From IMG/VR virus record IMGVR_UViG_3300034072_000578, positions 44,413-108,412 of that record: DNA of 64,000 nucleotides; one strand, written 5' to 3'. Position 1 is the first letter of the stretch, and every line of letters starts with the position of its first letter. The notes beneath the pieces are model-generated. The model searched no databases and was not told where the DNA came from. It saw nothing but the letters and a program-made list of their open reading frames with translations. This document shows, in pieces, positions 6,285 through 58,486 of this stretch. The stretch is from a virus. The position numbers and the translations under genes are program-made.

Positions 6285-6610
6285 ATATTTTCGCCAGCGA
6301 ACGCATTAAGCCCGCTAACATTAAGTTCCCTAAGGGAATGGATAAGTTGGAATGGGAGCATGTTGAAACTACTTCTAGTTTCGATGCTAATTTCGCTGCT
6401 ACCAAGGTTGGTCACGTAGTTATTGACTGCTTTCATGGCGAAAATATCAACGGTCTTAGAGTAGCTAAAGCCATTGTGGAACTTAGCATCGATAAGCACC
6501 AACCTCTTCCGACTCTTCTACTGGTAGGCCCAGATCAGAACATGCGGAAAGAGATAGAAACCTATATCTCCAACTCCAAAAGATGGATAGATATCGCAAC
6601 AGGTAAGTGA
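6281..6610 (+). CDS. hypothetical protein
   Basis: 109-aa ORF within the operon. Confidence 0.55.
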   Translation: MNIFASERIKPANIKFPKGMDKLEWEHVETTSSFDANFAATKVGHVVIDCFHGENINGLRVAKAIVELSIDKHQPLPTLLLVGPDQNMRKEIETYISNSKRWIDIATGK

Positions 6611-9085: not shown

Positions 9086-9162
9086 GCGCGTTTAGCTCAG
9101 TTGGTAGAGCAGTCGGCCCCTAATCCGACAGGCCACGGGTTCGATCCCTGTAACGCGCACCA
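9086..9162 (+). tRNA. atypical tRNA with 8-nt anticodon loop CCCCTAAT (Arg CCT or suppressor-like CTA)
   Basis: GCGCGTT/AACGCGC acceptor, GTCGG/CCGAC stem enclosing 8 nt, TTCGATC T-loop, CCA. Confidence 0.7.
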
Positions 9163-11278: not shown

Positions 11279-11878
11279 ATGACTCAGTTGAACGCCGAAA
11301 CGGCATCTGAATTCGATTTCGTTGCCCTGATCGACGCTTCGGGTTCGATGGGCAATCCGTCCGTCAAGATGCCGGGGAAGACCCGCTGGCAGGAAATGCA
11401 AGAGTCGCTGCTGGGCTTCATCCGCGCCATCGAACCGTTCGACGCTGACGGCATCGATGTCGGTGTGTTCGGCCCGAACTTCGAAGTCGAAGAAGGCGTT
11501 ACGTCCGCCACCATCGACAAGCTGTTCGCTTCGCGTGGTCCGCGTGGTTCGACCCCGCTGCATGATGCCATCGCGTGGACCATCGACAAGCAGAAGAAGA
11601 CCGGCAAGAAGACCTTCGCCGTCATCTTCACCGATGGCGAGCCGAACGATCAGGCGCTGGTCGCCAAGCTCATCACCGATGCTTCGAACAACATCGCGAA
11701 GGATGAAGACCTGACGTTCCTCTTCATCCAGATCGGCGACGACAAGGCGGCGCGGAACTATCTCGATCATCTGGACGACCAGTTGACCGGCAAGTTCGAC
11801 ATCGTGGACGTTGTGAGCGTCACCGAAGCGGACTCGATGGAACCGCTGGCCCTCATCAACAAGGCCATTGCCGACTAA
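11279..11878 (+). CDS. Ter-associated von Willebrand factor A domain protein
   Basis: MIDAS DASGSM, GSTPL, FTDGEP, FIQIGDD..A..YL..LDD. Confidence 0.88.
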   Translation: MTQLNAETASEFDFVALIDASGSMGNPSVKMPGKTRWQEMQESLLGFIRAIEPFDADGIDVGVFGPNFEVEEGVTSATIDKLFASRGPRGSTPLHDAIAWTIDKQKKTGKKTFAVIFTDGEPNDQALVAKLITDASNNIAKDEDLTFLFIQIGDDKAARNYLDHLDDQLTGKFDIVDVVSVTEADSMEPLALINKAIAD

Positions 11879-11989
11879 TCGCCGGCAATACATCACCAAC
11901 CTAGTTAGTTGGTATCGTTCTGAATAACCTTGGGGTAGTAGAAGTAGGAAGAAATGCTTCTACTACCCCTTTTAGTAGCGGGGTTTAAT

Positions 11990-12436
11990 ATGGGTTTCCT
12001 CGATAGCCTCAAAGGCATCGCCTCCAACTTCATGGCTGATGCTGAAAAGGCTCTTAGCCGCATGTCCGACAAGGCGACTTTCATTCGCACCGTCCAAGCT
12101 TCCTATCTGGTCGCTGCCGCTGATGGCAACGTATCGGATGAAGAGAAGGTGGTTCTTGGCCGCGTCATCGCCAAGAAACTTCCTTCCTTCAAGTCGTCGG
12201 AGGTTGCTAAGGCAATCGATGACTGCGCCGAAGAAATGTCCCTCTCTGCCGTAGCTGGTAAGGTTGCTCTTATGGAGAGCATCGAAAAGGCTGCTGGCAC
12301 TGATGGTGCAAAGGTCATCATGCTTGGCATGTTGGCCGTGGCCAATGCCGACAATGAGTTCCAACCCTCCGAACAGCAGGTGGCGCGGGCCATTTGCGTC
12401 AAGCTCGGTCTTCGCCCGCAGGAGTATGCGCTATAA
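11990..12436 (+). CDS. terB: TerB-family protein
   Basis: LVAAADGNVSDEEK and VANADNEFQPSE repeats. Confidence 0.8.
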   Translation: MGFLDSLKGIASNFMADAEKALSRMSDKATFIRTVQASYLVAAADGNVSDEEKVVLGRVIAKKLPSFKSSEVAKAIDDCAEEMSLSAVAGKVALMESIEKAAGTDGAKVIMLGMLAVANADNEFQPSEQQVARAICVKLGLRPQEYAL

Positions 12437-13035
12437 TGGAATGGTTACTTGCTAACCTGATGACGTTCGGTAGTATCGTTCTGCTGGACATCGTTCTCTC
12501 CGGTGATAACGCCGTTATTATCGGGGCAAAAGCCGCCAGCCTTCCCGCCGAACAGCGTAAGAAGGTCATCAAATACGGCATGTTCATGGCCGCAGGTTTC
12601 CGCATCGTTCTGCTGTTCCTCGCGACCTACCTGCTACAGATTCCCGGTATCCGACTCGCCGGTGGTCTTGCCCTGCTCTATGTGGCGTGGGGTATGTTCA
12701 AGGATATCAGGGACAATGGTATCGTTGATGGTAGCACGGAGAACGTAACGGCTGCTGCGAACTATCGTTCCGCACTCTTCGCCGTTGCTCTTGCCGATCT
12801 TTCGATGTCCATCGATAACATTCTTGCCGTTGCTGGTGCTGCCGGGGATCATTACTTCGCGCTCATCTTCGGTATCGTGTTGTCGATCTTCATCATGATC
12901 TTTGCTGCCAATGCGGTAGCGAGACTCATTGAGAAGTATCGTTGGCTGGCTTGGTTCGGCTTGCTGCTGGTCCTCTATATCGCGGGTCATCTGATCTATC
13001 AGGACGTTCCAGTCATCGTGTCTTGGACTTCCTAA
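12436..13035 (+). CDS. terC: TerC/YjbE-family membrane protein
   Basis: LDIVLSGDNAVII and ADLSMSIDNILAVAG, multiple TMs. Confidence 0.9.
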   Translation: MEWLLANLMTFGSIVLLDIVLSGDNAVIIGAKAASLPAEQRKKVIKYGMFMAAGFRIVLLFLATYLLQIPGIRLAGGLALLYVAWGMFKDIRDNGIVDGSTENVTAAANYRSALFAVALADLSMSIDNILAVAGAAGDHYFALIFGIVLSIFIMIFAANAVARLIEKYRWLAWFGLLLVLYIAGHLIYQDVPVIVSWTS

Positions 13036-13046
13036 TAAGCTAATAG

Positions 13047-13072
13047 AAACGGGGCTTAACGGCCCCGTTTTT
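13047..13072 (+). terminator. intrinsic terminator
   Basis: AAACGGGGC/GCCCCGTTT stem plus T-run. Confidence 0.8.
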
Positions 13073-13153
13073 ATTTGACCTTAATCAAATAATACTAGAT
13101 TAAATATAAGATCAGGGCCAAGAAAAAAAGTTTGGGCTTGGTGCATTTTTCTC

Positions 13154-13182
13154 TTGCACCGAATCGATTCGTCGCCTAGATA
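13154..13182 (+). promoter_or_regulatory. promoter of the large RNA operon, with two tandem GANTC sites
   Basis: TTGCAC-17-TAGATA with CGAATCGATTCG in the spacer; A/T-rich UP element. Confidence 0.7.
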
Positions 13183-13189
13183 GAGATCA

Positions 13190-14006
13190 CCGGCAAGGAA
13201 ACGAACCGGTCGCTGCTTGAAGCGGATAAGCTAGAGTAATCTGGTGAAAGGTTAGGAGCCAAACCAAGCCGCCTAGTAATAGGTCAACTTAAGCAACATG
13301 GAACTGACCGAAAGGTTCCTCTATACAAGTAGGGGATAGATTGAAGGATAAGGGTTTTAGGTCCGAAAGGATAACTAGCAGAGCTAATCGGTGAGCTAGT
13401 GAAGTCGCAAACACCTGCACCAAGCAAAACTTATTCGAAGTCGATAGTGAACCATAAGGGTAATAGTTCGACCATTAGCGTGGAAGAGCATTAGCCAGTT
13501 ACCAAAGGTGGAGACACTTTACGTAACCGTTGAGTAGCCCGCAAGGCGAAAGACATGAGGCGTGTGGCATGTTGTTCCCCAAAAGGGAATGATACCATTG
13601 GACAAGCACGTCTTAACTGGAAACAACTTAGCATAACGGTAATGCGATGGACTCTTAATCCATTGATTGTTGGTTCAAATCCAGCAGTTGATTCATCAAC
13701 GCAAAGCCTTGTCCAGCTATAAGTGAAAGGCACCTAAGCCCTACCTAGAGTGGGGGCATGAAGTCTCGCAAGGATGGATTGTTTGTAGTGGAAGAACTCA
13801 TTGCTCTTTAGCGGGAGCTTAATGGAGGTAAAACTTCAATGGGATTAAGATACTATGAGTAGCTTGTAGTGATATCGCAAATGCCAGCGATTAATAAAAT
13901 GGCGGTGTTGGTAGTTACTATGATACCTTGACCGGGTTATAGTGGAAAAGGCCCTAAACAATAAGGGGTTTAAGACTGCCCTTAGTAAGTGTATTCTCAG
14001 CTTGCT
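13190..14006 (+). ncRNA. GOLLD-like giant structured RNA
   Basis: About 800 nt without a credible ORF, many GNRA-capped hairpins, segment GTAACCGTTGAGTAGCCCGCAAGGC and 3' GTGTATTCTCAG that I recall from GOLLD RNAs, adjacent to tRNAs; boundaries approximate. Confidence 0.75.
13622..13693 (+). tRNA. trnK: tRNA-Lys(CTT) embedded in the GOLLD-like RNA, no encoded CCA
   Basis: CAACT/AGTTG acceptor core, ATGGA-CTCTTAA-TCCAT, GTTGG-TTCAAAT-CCAGC. Confidence 0.75.
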
Positions 14007-14016
14007 AATTACATAT

Positions 14017-14065
14017 GGGGATAATCGCGTAAAGTCATTGGTCTGACCGCTCGGTTTCCCCACCA
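14017..14065 (+). ncRNA. 49-nt minihelix-like RNA ending in ACCA
   Basis: GGGGA/TCCCC-A-CCA closing an irregular hairpin. Confidence 0.5.
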
Positions 14066-14066
14066 T

Positions 14067-14144
14067 GGCCTATGTAGCTCAGTCCGGTTAGAGCGTCCGA
14101 TAAATAAGGAAGGTCGTTGGTTCGAATCCAACCCTAAGGCCCCA
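14067..14144 (+). ncRNA. tRNA-like RNA with a shortened anticodon arm
   Basis: Canonical D-arm and T-arm, CCA; anticodon arm is TCC-GATAAATAA-GGA. Confidence 0.65.
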
Positions 14145-14145
14145 T

Positions 14146-14242
14146 AGCGCGGTAGTTTGAGTGTGCTTCTGGACAGAAGTATGCAGACAAAACAGCTTTC
14201 GGAGGATTGAAGACGGGGGTTTGAATCCCTCTCGCGCTTCCA
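14146..14242 (+). ncRNA. tRNA-like RNA with an expanded D-domain and no clear anticodon
   Basis: AGCGCGG/TCGCGCT-T-CCA, inserted hairpin GTGTGCTTCT-GGAC-AGAAGTATGC, T-loop TTTGAAT. Confidence 0.6.
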
Positions 14243-14244
14243 AC

Positions 14245-14354
14245 GGGACGGTAATTCAGCGGTAGAAGACGAAACCTTGTCTAAGCCCTTTGAGGGTGAT
14301 GGACCCCAAGACAAGGCCAGATAGTCGGAGGTTCGATCCCTCCCCGTCCCGCCA
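14245..14354 (+). ncRNA. tRNA-like RNA with a branched domain replacing the anticodon arm
   Basis: GGGACGG/CCGTCCC-G-CCA, D-like arm, CCTTGTCT/AGACAAGG helix enclosing a CCCT-TTG-AGGG hairpin, GGAGG-TTCGATC-CCTCC. Confidence 0.65.
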
Positions 14355-14570
14355 CTTAATAACATTGAAACATGATGGTCTGCACATTGTCATGTTTCAA
14401 CCTTGTTAAGTTTCACATTATCGGTGGGCTGAAATCCAGCGATAGAGGCAAGCCCCTAAGCAAGGCTCCTACGTGAACCTAATCCATAGTGTTAGGAGCG
14501 ATGATTTACGCTAGCTATGATTAGGGGAAGCTAGAAAGGTTATAGACCTGATAAACTTCCCCTTCTTAGT

Positions 14571-14647
14571 GGACCCTTAGCTCATTTGGTTAGAGCGACG
14601 GACTTTTAATCTGTAGGTGCTGGGTTCGAATCCCAGAGGGTCCACCA
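14571..14647 (+). tRNA. trnK: tRNA-Lys(TTT)
   Basis: Loop CTTTTAA, CCA. Confidence 0.93.
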
Positions 14648-14770
14648 CTTACTTAGTAGTGATAGAATACGGGTTGGTTCTTCAATTTGCTTTTGCCCAA
14701 AAGCTGTCGATCCGTATTCTTTCTTTATTAAGTGGGGTGTTATGTATTTTCTTACGTTATGACCTACCAA

Positions 14771-14854
14771 GCCCTCTTGGCGTAATTGGTAGGCGCAGCA
14801 GACTTAAAATCTGCCGGTTGATCCGTCTCGGTTCGAGTCCGAGAGAGGGCACCA
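14771..14854 (+). tRNA. trnL: tRNA-Leu(TAA)
   Basis: Loop CTTAAAA, variable arm, CCA. Confidence 0.93.
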
Positions 14855-15013
14855 AGTTTCAGAGCCAACTTCGCGGGCGTCTCCATCCGCGAGAAAACAC
14901 CTAGACATACCCTCTTGCATGTGGGTAGTTAATGGACGGTGGGGTAAAAGCCCTCAATATGCAGCGTTATATGACTGGCCTTCGGTGTCGCAACCTAGCC
15001 TTTCGACTAACCT

Positions 15014-15035
15014 AGGCCCTTCGGGGCCTTTTTTT
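15014..15035 (+). terminator. intrinsic terminator of the RNA operon
   Basis: AGGCCC-TTCG-GGGCCT followed by a T-run. Confidence 0.85.
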
Positions 15036-15048
15036 GGAGTCTTACTAA

Positions 15049-15588
15049 ATGGGTCTTTTGGGTAAGAAGAAGCAAGAGCTTCCCGTCAATGCCGGTGTCG
15101 AACTTGGCGACTACGTTAAGGACGTAGTTACCGGTTTTGAGGGCATTGCTTATGCTCGCGACTATCACCTTCACGGTTGCGACCGTATCGAGGTATCTCC
15201 GACCAGCTTGGATGATAACGGCAACCCCAAGGATGCTTTCGTTTTCGATATCCTGCGCCTGACGGTGATCGAAAAGGGGCGTATGGCTTGTATCGAGCCT
15301 AACGCCCACTTTAGCGCGTTCACCATGGGCGCGAAGGTCAAGGACACCATCACCGGCTTTGAAGGCATTATCGGCACCCGCACCGAAATCGTCACCGGCC
15401 TTACCCTCATCGGGATCATGCCGACTGTCCTTTCCAAGGAAGGCGCTCTCAAGGACGCTAAGGTCTTCCCGGCTGGCCGGGTGGAACTGATCGCGGAACA
15501 GCCTGTCCCGGTCGCTCCTGAGGCTCCAAAGGGCAAACCGGGCGGTCCTACCGAACGTCGCAGCGCTGCCAAGGCTCCGCCCCGCTAA
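15049..15588 (+). CDS. hypothetical protein with two internal repeats
   Basis: LGDYVKDVVTGFEGI and MGAKVKDTITGFEGI duplicated domain. Confidence 0.7.
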   Translation: MGLLGKKKQELPVNAGVELGDYVKDVVTGFEGIAYARDYHLHGCDRIEVSPTSLDDNGNPKDAFVFDILRLTVIEKGRMACIEPNAHFSAFTMGAKVKDTITGFEGIIGTRTEIVTGLTLIGIMPTVLSKEGALKDAKVFPAGRVELIAEQPVPVAPEAPKGKPGGPTERRSAAKAPPR

Positions 15589-15614
15589 CAGCTATATTAC
15601 TAGCCGTTTTAATT

Positions 15615-15654
15615 ACTCCCGTTCTTGCTATAAAGGCTCGAACGGGAGTTTTTT
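15615..15654 (+). terminator. intrinsic terminator
   Basis: ACTCCCGTTC/GAACGGGAGT plus T-run. Confidence 0.6.
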
Positions 15655-16185
15655 ATGCGATTAAGAGAACATTTAATACTACGTGGAATGAATCCTAGCC
15701 TATACCGACACGCTAAATGTTATTCCACTAACAAAATCACCTTCTATTTATACAATTTAAGTGGTCAGATGGTAGGTTATCAACACTACCGACCATTAAT
15801 AGAAGAAAAAGGGGTTAAAAATAACCCTAAATTAGGTCGATACTTCACTAAATTACCTAAGAACACTATTGGAGTGTTCGGATTAGACGTTTTAGATGAA
15901 ACTAGACCAGAATTATTCGTAGTTGAAGGCATTTTTAAAGCCGCCAAGCTCCATCGGCTAGGCTACAACGCCATCGCGGTCCTAGGGCCGACCCCCAAGC
16001 CCATGGCAGCATGGTTTCGCGCTCTACGAGGCTCCTACAAGCTCCTAGCGATCGGTGACAATGACCGGGCCGGTCAATATCTGGTCGATATTGTTGGCGC
16101 TGGCACCCTTTCCCCTGTAGATTTGGACGAAATGGACGACTCAGCGGTGGTGGAATTGGCAAATGAGCAAATACAGCGGTATTAA
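15655..16185 (+). CDS. TOPRIM-domain (primase-like) protein
   Basis: LFVVEGIF.A, NAIAVLG, IGDND.AG. Confidence 0.75.
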   Translation: MRLREHLILRGMNPSLYRHAKCYSTNKITFYLYNLSGQMVGYQHYRPLIEEKGVKNNPKLGRYFTKLPKNTIGVFGLDVLDETRPELFVVEGIFKAAKLHRLGYNAIAVLGPTPKPMAAWFRALRGSYKLLAIGDNDRAGQYLVDIVGAGTLSPVDLDEMDDSAVVELANEQIQRY

Positions 16186-16290
16186 ATGGAAGATTAAAGC
16201 TTACTTGATAGCTAAGTTTTGGAATCCCAAAAGAAATAGCAAAGAATATTGGGGTTTTATTAAGAACGCCAGCAAAAGGAAGATTAAGAA

Positions 16291-16608
16291 ATGACTAATA
16301 TTATAGTGTCAAACCAAGTAGAGTGCCTGTCATGTGGTGATAGGCCCTATTCCGCTCATAGACATGACTTTAAATACTGCAAATGCGGTAATGTAGCTGT
16401 CGATGGTGGCCAAGCTTACCTTCGCAGGGTGTATAATAACACTAACTGGAAGGAAATTTCGATAAAAATACCGGAAGAAGCCGTTAATAAGGCCATCGAA
16501 GAGGTCGAAGAAGCGATCAAGACAGGTCGCAACGCAAGAGGGCTGGTATATGCCGCCCTGCGTGGCCTAAGAGACGGTGGTTTCACCTTCCCCGACAACA
16601 ATATCTAA
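16291..16608 (+). CDS. Zn-ribbon protein
   Basis: C..C...H.HDF..C.CG.VAVDGG..YLRR. Confidence 0.7.
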   Translation: MTNIIVSNQVECLSCGDRPYSAHRHDFKYCKCGNVAVDGGQAYLRRVYNNTNWKEISIKIPEEAVNKAIEEVEEAIKTGRNARGLVYAALRGLRDGGFTFPDNNI

Positions 16609-56772: not shown

Positions 56773-57080
56773 CCTTCGTATAATCGATTTTTGAACTGCC
56801 AGATTTCGTTACCGAAAATGCCAGTCATTAGTGCTTCATAGGCGTAGTGGTTATTGTCACTGTCCCACCATAGATAACCTTTATTCTGGTCGATCCATGC
56901 TGGCTCGCTGGTGAACATGTCGATCAAGCCTTCTGCAAGCTGATCGAAGATCAACACTTTCTCGATGTCCTTCTTAAGATAGACACTTTCTAGGTGCGGT
57001 TTAATTGCTTCGCAGAACTGACGGGAATTAATCTTCCCGTCTTTATAGTCCTGCCTAATATCCATTAGGTGATTATACAT
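56769..57080 (-). CDS. hypothetical protein
   Basis: Coupled ORF. Confidence 0.55.
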   Translation of the reverse strand: MYNHLMDIRQDYKDGKINSRQFCEAIKPHLESVYLKKDIEKVLIFDQLAEGLIDMFTSEPAWIDQNKGYLWWDSDNNHYAYEALMTGIFGNEIWQFKNRLYEG

Positions 57081-58486
57081 TAAGCTCTTACTAGCTCCCT
57101 GATTTGTTCCATGGTCTGCTCTCTTGCTAGAACGCCACGCATACGCTGTTTGTCGTAATAATAGACCGTTTCTAGCAGCCTAGTAGGATAGGTAGTTGCT
57201 AGGGTCCAATCTACGGTATGGACTTCGCCATCCTTACCAATTACGGTTTCTAGTTTACCGGCCTTTGACTTCTTGCCCGGATCGGTGATGGGGTCTTTGC
57301 GGATCGGAACCCAGCCATTGCTCTGGACAACGGCAGACGCCTTGAAAGCCCACTTCATGGTATCGCGGTTAACCTTCTGCATTAGACCGCCACCTGATCC
57401 TACGATAAGATTCTCTACCCCGTAACCAAGCCTAGGCATGATCGTAAGCACTTCTAGATAGTTGCTTTCATCGATACCATCACCCCAAAGTAGCTTTAGG
57501 TTATCGAAAACCCATAGCCCCTTATCATTCTTGTGACGGGGGAAGCCTTTCTCTAGAATGGAAATCATCTTAGGAATGACTTCGGTTGGTTCGCCGCTAT
57601 CTGGACGAATTACTAGGCTGACATTCTTCTCTTTCACTCGATCAGCGAGCTTATTCCAATAAGAACAAGCACGATAAATATCCCAAGCATCCGAGACAAC
57701 AGAAAGAACCGAACCATCGGGCGTTTCTTCAAGGATTTTACCAAAGCTTTCTTCTTCCCTTAGTTCCGACCAGCTACACATGACACTGTGTTCGGTTGCC
57801 GCTACTGAATAACCTGTTACCTGACCGCCATAATAATCATAGACGTAAGCGACACCAGCGACAGTATCAGTGCCAAGGAAGCTAGTGAGAAAGCCAGCAG
57901 TCCCGATTTCGCTTGCATCCTGCGATTCAACCCCGCGAGCGCTAAAATCAAGGAAAGAAAAATCTGCGTTAGCGCTACTATCAGCATAGCGAGCGTATAG
58001 AGCATCAATGTTCTTCCTGATCTGATAGACGCGGCTAGCAATCGTGGTAGGGAACCAGACAGCACGTAGAAGGGCGGTTTCGACATAACCTACTAAGCTG
58101 TATAGCCGCTTGTCAGTGCATTCCACCGTTACTACGGCATTCTTGTAAGGAAGCTTAAGCCCTTCCTTGACCGCTTTAATTGTTACTGGAATATAGCCAT
58201 AATATTCATCAACAACAATGTCCCAAGCAGAGCGATCAAACTTGATGCCCATAGCTGAAATGATGAAGTCGGCATAGTCAACGTCCTCTTTAGTAACTGG
58301 AGTTAGTAACTTTTCCTTGATGAAACCCTGTAGTCCAAAAAGGACTACAGTTTCATAGATGCCACCACGACTTTCAGCATAGGAAAAGATGCCGGTAACG
58401 TCGGGCGCATACATACGGGGCTGAGTGGTCTTGTAATAGTCGGTGTCAATAACACGCGACTTACGTAAAGCGGGCTTAATTACCAT
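57080..58486 (-). CDS. nadV: nicotinamide phosphoribosyltransferase
   Basis: DTD.YK, FGLQ, DF.ARG, SV.ATEHS, IRPDSG, GDG, GSGGGL, KDPITDPGKKSK.G. Confidence 0.95.
   Translation of the reverse strand: MVIKPALRKSRVIDTDYYKTTQPRMYAPDVTGIFSYAESRGGIYETVVLFGLQGFIKEKLLTPVTKEDVDYADFIISAMGIKFDRSAWDIVVDEYYGYIPVTIKAVKEGLKLPYKNAVVTVECTDKRLYSLVGYVETALLRAVWFPTTIASRVYQIRKNIDALYARYADSSANADFSFLDFSARGVESQDASEIGTAGFLTSFLGTDTVAGVAYVYDYYGGQVTGYSVAATEHSVMCSWSELREEESFGKILEETPDGSVLSVVSDAWDIYRACSYWNKLADRVKEKNVSLVIRPDSGEPTEVIPKMISILEKGFPRHKNDKGLWVFDNLKLLWGDGIDESNYLEVLTIMPRLGYGVENLIVGSGGGLMQKVNRDTMKWAFKASAVVQSNGWVPIRKDPITDPGKKSKAGKLETVIGKDGEVHTVDWTLATTYPTRLLETVYYYDKQRMRGVLAREQTMEQIRELVRA

Follow-up and report, generated by a model that had tools for sequence, protein, structure and literature searches.

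The locus analysed here raises the question of whether about 800 nt of hairpin-rich DNA with a tRNA-Lys(CUU) nested inside it constitutes a single GOLLD RNA and, if so, whether that tRNA serves translation or stays a part of the large RNA. GOLLD RNA (Rfam RF02032) was reportedly described by Weinberg et al. in 2009, and we know of no function for it since then, despite its cage structures. The window, that is, the whole 64,000-nt stretch of DNA analysed, forms the right-hand 64 kb of a virus record that is complete at 108,412 bp and carries direct terminal repeats. We hold it fairly probable (about 0.6) that the locus comprises a full-length GOLLD in a non-coding operon, with a tethered tRNA-shaped module that is not a decoding tRNA.

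The GOLLD RNA and its transcription unit

The original prediction took this region for a GOLLD-like giant RNA, and a search with the Rfam covariance model bore this out: RF02032 matches 13555-14003 (+) over its whole length (model positions 1-416 of 416) with 183.6 bits (E = 5e-50), against a gathering score of 150 bits. The model covers the conserved 3' domain only. Upstream of it lies a 5' domain of about 365 nt that aligns with those of the phages phiCbK and BL57; the consensus fold of the three contains 102 pairs, 23 of them with compensatory changes, and all three have the same 22-nt block, GAGTAGCCCGCAAGGCGAAAGA. A complete GOLLD RNA, about 815 nt long, extends from about 13189 to 14003 (+), and its family membership and architecture are practically certain. 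It lies in a phage tRNA island, the window containing all 26 tRNA genes that ARAGORN finds in the entire 108-kb genome. The features of the locus are as follows.

11279..13035, VWA-TerB-TerC genes, an operon upstream of GOLLD; the TerC ORF ends at 13035
13049..13073 (+), intrinsic terminator of the VWA/TerB/TerC operon, read from the sequence (ACGGGGC/GCCCCGT stem, 6-nt loop, T run)
13154..13182 (+), putative sigma-70-like promoter, CCTAGATA, read from the sequence: TTGCAC (13154-13159), 17-nt spacer, TAGATA (13177-13182)
13189..13554 (+), GOLLD 5' domain, beyond the Rfam model
13555..13616 (+), first hairpin of the 3' domain, with a 3'-side bulge (aligned by Rfam to model positions 1-62 with a posterior of about 1.0)
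13599..13606 (+), 5' strand of the pseudoknot, TGGACAAG, in that bulge; pairs with 13708-13715
13622..13693 (+), tRNA-shaped module, anticodon CUU (Lys)
13694..13707 (+), post-tRNA tether with the GCAAAG motif; the model consensus aligned here is AAAGCAAAAG
13708..13715 (+), 3' strand of the pseudoknot, CTTGTCCA, immediately before the long-range helix in the 3' domain
13716..14003 (+), rest of the conserved 3' domain (model positions 137-416), ending in GTGTATTCTCAGC
14017..14354 (+), CCA-ended tRNA-like array, with weak Rfam tRNA matches at 14068-14140 (33 bits) and 14245-14351 (37 bits)

The description of the region as about 800 nt of hairpin-rich, non-coding sequence behind its own promoter stood as well. 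Open reading frames across the GOLLD region are short (at most 80 aa), overlapping and present on both strands, and the 814-nt stretch has a minimum free energy of -240.9 kcal/mol (z = -3.1), a value that none of 20 shuffled sequences equalled. The promoter at 13154-13182 has a predicted transcription start at about 13189, and the terminator at 13049-13073 separates the VWA/TerB/TerC operon from the GOLLD unit; a consensus promoter/terminator scanner listed neither of these two elements. The phage phiCbK has the same promoter layout before its own GOLLD (TTGACG-N15-GCTAGAAC), a layout that resembles the Caulobacter housekeeping promoter consensus. Part of the spacer in the window (13160-13171) is a palindrome, CGAATCGATTCG, with GANTC sites, through which the promoter could be subject to CcrM/GcrA-type methylation-dependent control.

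A single promoter was found across the GOLLD parts, and no internal terminator was seen either in our reading of the sequence or by the scanner, which places the next terminator-like site past GOLLD at 15014-15039. The first CCA-ended tRNA-like element begins 14 nt past the GOLLD end, and the tRNA-like array is followed by tRNA-Lys(UUU), tRNA-Leu(UAA) and then that terminator. This order of elements suggests that GOLLD opens a non-coding operon about 1.85 kb long, which consists of the promoter, GOLLD, the tRNA-like array, the two tRNAs and the terminator. A plus-strand tRNA also begins 8-21 nt past the GOLLD 3' motif in 26 motif-matching IMG/VR loci, drawn from 120 such loci of which about 88 are GOLLD by nhmmer and about 32 are not and are likely chance matches. 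The 3' end of GOLLD is probably made by RNase P cutting at the downstream tRNA-like element. Within the array, the element at 14245-14351 is 107 nt long and has an enlarged anticodon region.

The sequencing runs that contain the stretch are subsurface and soil metagenomes, among them its probable source, and also RNA-Seq-labelled libraries made from wastewater and seawater in several studies. Contigs from four RNA-labelled runs of four studies, three of which are only guessed to be of RNA nature, were placed on 11500-16500; they inform on presence and contiguity, ends, processing sites and levels not being visible from them. These contigs map to 13197-13982, the earliest start being 13197, and to the downstream tRNA-like array (contigs from two studies), and one of them (13907-14057) bridges the junction between GOLLD and the array. 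None mapped to the coding flanks (11834-13169 and 15508-16500), an absence that is not evidence of an RNA-only origin. One contig of 532 nt, assembled from a wastewater RNA-Seq library (13297-13828, depth about 20), starts in the 5' domain, crosses the whole tRNA and ends in the 3' domain without a break.

It might be argued that the tRNA and the parts 5' and 3' of it are three independent genes that happen to be neighbours, as the Rfam model covers only 13555-14003. Such an arrangement is extremely improbable, given that the Rfam match itself spans the tRNA, that the conserved elements on either side of it are joined by a covarying pseudoknot (see below), that the phiCbK phages conserve the 5' domain along with the 3' domain, and that all parts follow a single promoter with no internal terminator and are spanned by one contig.

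The ribonucleotide reductase of this phage is nearest to those of Caulobacter and Brevundimonas phages, with about 50% identity. Together with the phiCbK-like promoter layout, the GOLLD 5' domain and the GANTC sites of the spacer, it points weakly to a Caulobacterales-like alphaproteobacterium as the host. Two sets of auxiliary genes in the window are of possible counter-defence interest, namely the VWA-TerB-TerC set and a gene of the NAMPT/NAPRTase family (NAD salvage) at 57080-58486.

The linker, its pseudoknot and the embedded tRNA

The variable linker (13617-13707), which holds the embedded tRNA, is aligned to the unstructured positions 63-130 of RF02032. It is preceded by the first hairpin of the 3' domain, whose A-rich loop CAAAAG lies at 13579-13585, and it ends in the tether with the family-conserved GCAAAG motif, which was found after every embedded tRNA.

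In the original prediction, the tRNA was bracketed by two complementary segments. The complementary strands at 13599-13606 and 13708-13715 do exist and form 8 bp here, but this helix is not specific to the tRNA. An 8-bp complement could by itself be due to chance, and it is the covariation across the GOLLD family that shows the helix to be real. GOLLDs were gathered from IMG/VR by their 3'-end motif and confirmed by profile, and the two strands were aligned independently with two profile HMMs, which replaced strict regex anchors that lost most loci. All 42 rows in which both strands were aligned retain 7-8 bp; they comprise 19 distinct strand pairs and show three to four Watson-Crick pair types at the inner positions, whereas strands cross-matched with the wrong partner average 5.0 pairs. 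The same helix is found again in a metagenomic relative (L126). Furthermore, it is kept both in tRNA-bearing members and in members with A/U linkers of 35-50 nt, and thus is not a tRNA-specific device. The bracket thus belongs to the GOLLD core, as a pseudoknot joining the two ends of the linker, and it probably matches a helix that the published secondary structure already shows. Searching for close relatives with the P14 pattern returned a phiCbK-like contig only, and a metagenome scan demanding both pseudoknot strands gave no match.

That a CCA-less tRNA-Lys(CUU) is nested in the RNA was confirmed. The Rfam tRNA model scores 61.3 bits at 13622-13693, ARAGORN calls a tRNA-Lys(CTT) at 13622-13694, and the sequence after the tRNA reads TC/CAT rather than CCA, position 73 being U. 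All 25 other tRNAs of the genome end in NCCA, as had been claimed for the free-standing tRNAs of the window, so that of all 26 only the embedded tRNA lacks an encoded CCA. Its acceptor stem (AACAACT/AGTTGAT) has A.A at 2-71 and retains six of seven pairs, two of them G-C. A73 is a LysRS identity element, as known from studies in E. coli, and is present in both phage tRNA-Lys(UUU). The D, anticodon and T arms of the embedded tRNA are canonical, with U8, G18 G19, U33, A37, a 7-nt anticodon loop and the T-loop TTCAAAT. Set against a decoding tRNA-Lys, the module has the cloverleaf and the tertiary nucleotides and lacks the intact 7-bp acceptor stem, A73 and CCA.

The ARAGORN tRNA set of the whole genome covers 19 amino acids, with none for Val; the free tRNAs mostly have U34, and Lys(UUU) occurs twice. 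The tRNA at 9086-9162 has good stems, an ACCA end, 57 bits with the Rfam model and an 8-nt anticodon loop, for which ARAGORN gives the four-base anticodon CCTA; from these features it could be a frameshift-type or amber-related suppressor. Neither a CCA-adding enzyme (PF01743) nor RtcB (PF01139) was found in the phage, a weak result that decides between no readings.

Embedded tRNAs across the family and their possible role

For 15 distinct embedded tRNAs, 57 distinct free tRNAs taken from the same loci served as the comparison. With p-values that overstate the case because the embedded tRNAs are phylogenetically related, the acceptor stems average 5.1 Watson-Crick pairs in embedded and 6.2 in free tRNAs (p = 3e-5), and 1.7 versus 3.7 G-C pairs (p = 2e-6). 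In the other three stems the embedded tRNAs are no worse, with a mean of 13.7 Watson-Crick pairs versus 13.2 (p = 0.047). The D-loop GG is present in 15/15 embedded and 54/57 free tRNAs, and the T-loop TTC in 14/15 and 53/57, respectively; a canonical U33/R37 anticodon loop is found in 10/15 versus 53/57 (p = 0.016). CCA status shows no contrast family-wide (2/15 versus 16/57, p = 0.33), so that the CCA contrast is specific to this genome, and G at tRNA position 1 does not separate the two classes either (4/15 versus 23/57, p = 0.38).

A tRNA, where there is one, takes up almost the entire linker, whose length is then nearly constant: among 11 distinct tRNA-bearing members with both sides aligned, the gap between the flanking profile matches measures 76-80 nt in nine, and 86 and 94 nt in the remaining two. 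Thirteen IMG/VR loci, all above the Rfam threshold (159-225 bits), have a plus-strand tRNA at the same offset, as do phages of the phiCbK type and a metagenome contig, in which it is a tRNA-Arg(ACG). The embedded anticodons are those for Lys (CUU, UUU), Arg (UCU twice, ACG), Gly (UCC), Trp, His (AUG), Asn (GUU, AUU), Gln, Leu (UAG) and Ser (GCU), plus the stop-reading CUA and UUA. The stop-reading tRNAs occur in L071 (CUA, 6492-6564) and L088 (UUA, 1066-1138; same as L097), and the unusual A34 anticodons AUG and AUU in L027 and L067. Pairwise identity of the embedded tRNAs roughly follows that of the scaffolds, which fits vertical descent and is too weak to argue against swaps. In a subgroup of 12 GOLLD loci (L007, L040, L046, L047, L057, L063, L072, L075, L094, L111, L113 and L118) ARAGORN detected no tRNA in the linkers of 90-113 nt, which may hold a degenerate tRNA-like element or another insert. 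Two metagenome contigs share the 22-nt block of the 5' domain: L126 (5959-6431), with a GOLLD score of 144.6 bits, just below the cut-off, has the embedded tRNA-Arg(ACG) and a 44-tRNA array, and L127 (5333-5746), with 208 bits, has no embedded tRNA.

The 532-nt contig described above differs from the window at six positions, all of them within the tRNA, with zero differences in the other approximately 460 nt.

13654 C>T and 13655 T>C, anticodon CUU to UCU
13651 A>C and 13659 T>G, compensatory, pair 31-39 from A-U to C-G
13647 A>G, tRNA position 27
13683 A>G, U.G in the T stem

ARAGORN reads the variant as a tRNA-Arg(UCU) with the same fold. By manual reading of the sequences, the reference anticodon arm agrees with that of the phage tRNA-Lys(UUU) at 13 of 17 positions, and the variant arm with that of the phage tRNA-Arg(UCU) at 14 of 17. 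The variant suggests that anticodon-arm identity is what selection acts on, and a natural strain pair differing only by such a Lys-to-Arg remodelling points to the anticodon stem-loop as the selected part. The change may have arisen by point mutation or through a short conversion tract.

For the embedded tRNA taken separately, we lean slightly towards a tethered, non-decoding module. The pattern of erosion, in which the acceptor is eroded and the D, anticodon and T stems are intact, suggests that the module would stay covalently attached and serve as a handle or bait in the shape of a tRNA; what would count is its elbow and anticodon stem-loop, not its acceptor end, and it would not supply translation. 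In this picture selection would maintain the L-shaped body and the anticodon arm but no longer the aminoacyl end, and as a class the embedded tRNAs, which have kept the elbow and three stems and lost acceptor-end quality, argue against a simple 'spare tRNA'. The tethered module is also favoured by the absence of CCA, the weak acceptor stem and U73 in this genome, by the near-constant linker and the unbroken contig, and by a Northern analysis in Mycobacterium aubagnense that detected GOLLD but not its embedded pseudo-tRNA (PMC6582537). The original prediction had the tRNA either displayed on or released from the large RNA; the evidence leans to display, which by homology with the solved cages would be on the inside of a cage, and the eroded acceptor, the missing CCA and the unbroken contig speak against release. 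On the other side, the tRNA body is canonical, with its 61.3 bits, 7-nt loop, U33 and A37, and the acceptor still has most of its pairs. The missing CCA is not distinctive family-wide, and RNase Z or exonucleases, together with a host CCA-adding enzyme, can mature a tRNA that lacks an encoded CCA, as happens with some T4 tRNAs. The embedded tRNAs are not phylogenetically independent, which makes the p-values too generous, and the runs are partly only guessed to be RNA, their contigs being blind to processing sites and abundance.

The canonical cloverleaf and anticodon loop also fit a possible, though doubtful, function of GOLLD as a precursor or depot, from which RNase P and a 3' nuclease would excise the tRNA, so that the host CCA enzyme completes it and it decodes AAG as tRNA-Lys(CUU). 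CUU is the only Lys isoacceptor of its kind in the phage set, the pseudoknot could keep the halves of a nicked GOLLD together, and a switch of anticodon could retune supply; release of this sort has been raised by the cryo-EM authors and, as 'inhibited storage', in PMC12990946. It is harder to reconcile with the weak acceptor stem, U73 and the lack of CCA in a genome whose other tRNAs all encode CCA, with acceptor erosion and frequent non-canonical anticodon loops throughout the family, with a phage that encodes no CCA-adding enzyme detectable as PF01743 and already covers Lys by two UUU tRNAs, with a contig that crosses both tRNA junctions unbroken, and with the undetected embedded tRNA of M. 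aubagnense (PMC6582537). A tRNA gene might instead have landed in a tolerant variable linker, since GOLLDs live in tRNA arrays, and be drifting to a pseudogene with no role of its own. Linker length and sequence do vary, many GOLLDs, including the related L127, have no tRNA, and the acceptor stems are eroded and some anticodon loops odd. Such a passenger is nevertheless quite unlikely, as in all 15 distinct copies the D, anticodon and T stems match those of free tRNAs in quality, the nucleotides of the elbow have been retained, changes in the anticodon stem are compensatory, and linker length is nearly constant when a tRNA is present. The six strain differences all fall in the tRNA and give a coherent Arg-type anticodon arm, unlike random decay, and such a re-specification in a frozen scaffold is hard to fit with a decaying passenger.

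Beyond simple tethering, a GOLLD cage might be a platform for 10-14 reprogrammable anticodon stem-loop mimics, serving as a decoy or sensor for host factors such as a defence anticodon nuclease, a proposal that we regard as speculative and on present evidence unlikely. The module would copy the anticodon arm of a tRNA attacked or bound by the host factor, and would soak up or sense that factor. If this were true, the switch from Lys(CUU) to Arg(UCU) in an identical scaffold would be a snapshot of an arms race, as would the spread of anticodons in the family (Lys, Arg, Asn, Gln, His, Trp, Gly, Leu, Ser and two stop-reading).

Relation to known GOLLDs and other cage RNAs

Solved GOLLD cages comprise the env-38 14-mer (9MEE) and the Streptococcus agalactiae 12-mer (9L0R), and cryo-EM has shown that the linker, which sometimes carries tRNAs, faces the cage interior (10.1101/2024.12.08.627333; PMC12990946). 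By homology with these two, the RNA of the window would assemble as a closed homo-oligomeric cage, and its linker, and hence 10-14 tRNA modules, would point into the lumen. The locus itself is an ordinary new GOLLD member, and the tRNA-in-linker arrangement was already known. It shares with RF02032 GOLLDs the full-length 3' domain, the variable 5' domain and linker, the location in a phage tRNA island and a tRNA directly downstream. In contrast to the env-38 and S. agalactiae members, for which the cage is known, the GOLLD of the window has a phiCbK-type 5' domain, a G+C content of 43% and a linker filled by a tRNA, which those members are not described as having (10.1101/2024.12.08.627333; PMC12990946). 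ROOL and other 'ornate' phage RNAs near tRNA islands are, like GOLLD, large and cage-forming with a variable linker that faces the interior, but ROOL is unrelated to GOLLD in sequence and fold, and an Rfam search of the window gave no ROOL match.

A blastn search of the region against 50,697 phage records returned only matches of 42-89 nt, all in phiCbK-like phages, and these led to their GOLLD. It turns out that phiCbK-like Caulobacter phages carry an unannotated full GOLLD, scoring 165 bits in phiCbK (JX163858.1, about 104.6-105.5 kb; L002:2146-3015, about 104.66-105.53 kb) and 170 bits in BL57 (L003:2146-3018). These GOLLDs share with the window the 5'-domain structure, the promoter layout and a tRNA at the same offset. 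Their module is a GenBank tRNA-Gly(TCC) inside the linker, with a non-canonical anticodon loop (G33 or A33, and U37; G33 and U37 in phiCbK), and their genomes, of 205-230 kb, are otherwise only distantly related to the phage of the window. The BL57 coding sequence BL57_146c, located inside the GOLLD 5' domain, is probably spurious, and a permuted tmRNA lies just upstream of the phiCbK-like GOLLD on the other strand. In our literature search GOLLD was not linked with phiCbK, and papers naming both GOLLD and Caulobacter draw no link between them. The phiCbK-like phages of Caulobacter crescentus, with the same RNA and tRNA module, offer a tractable phage-host pair; together with the class-wide erosion and the Lys-to-Arg switch, this link could make GOLLD function testable.

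The nearest parallels to the arrangement in the window are GOLLDs with a tRNA in the J13/15 linker. The review PMC12990946, citing Morgado 2020, describes a Mycolicibacterium tRNA-Phe in that linker and proposes 'inhibited storage'. This tRNA-Phe and the pseudo-tRNA of M. aubagnense resemble the embedded tRNA of the window in insertion site, in orientation and in a doubtful translational function. The embedded tRNA of the window differs from them in its anticodon, Lys(CUU), and in the switch to Arg(UCU) found in a near-identical strain.
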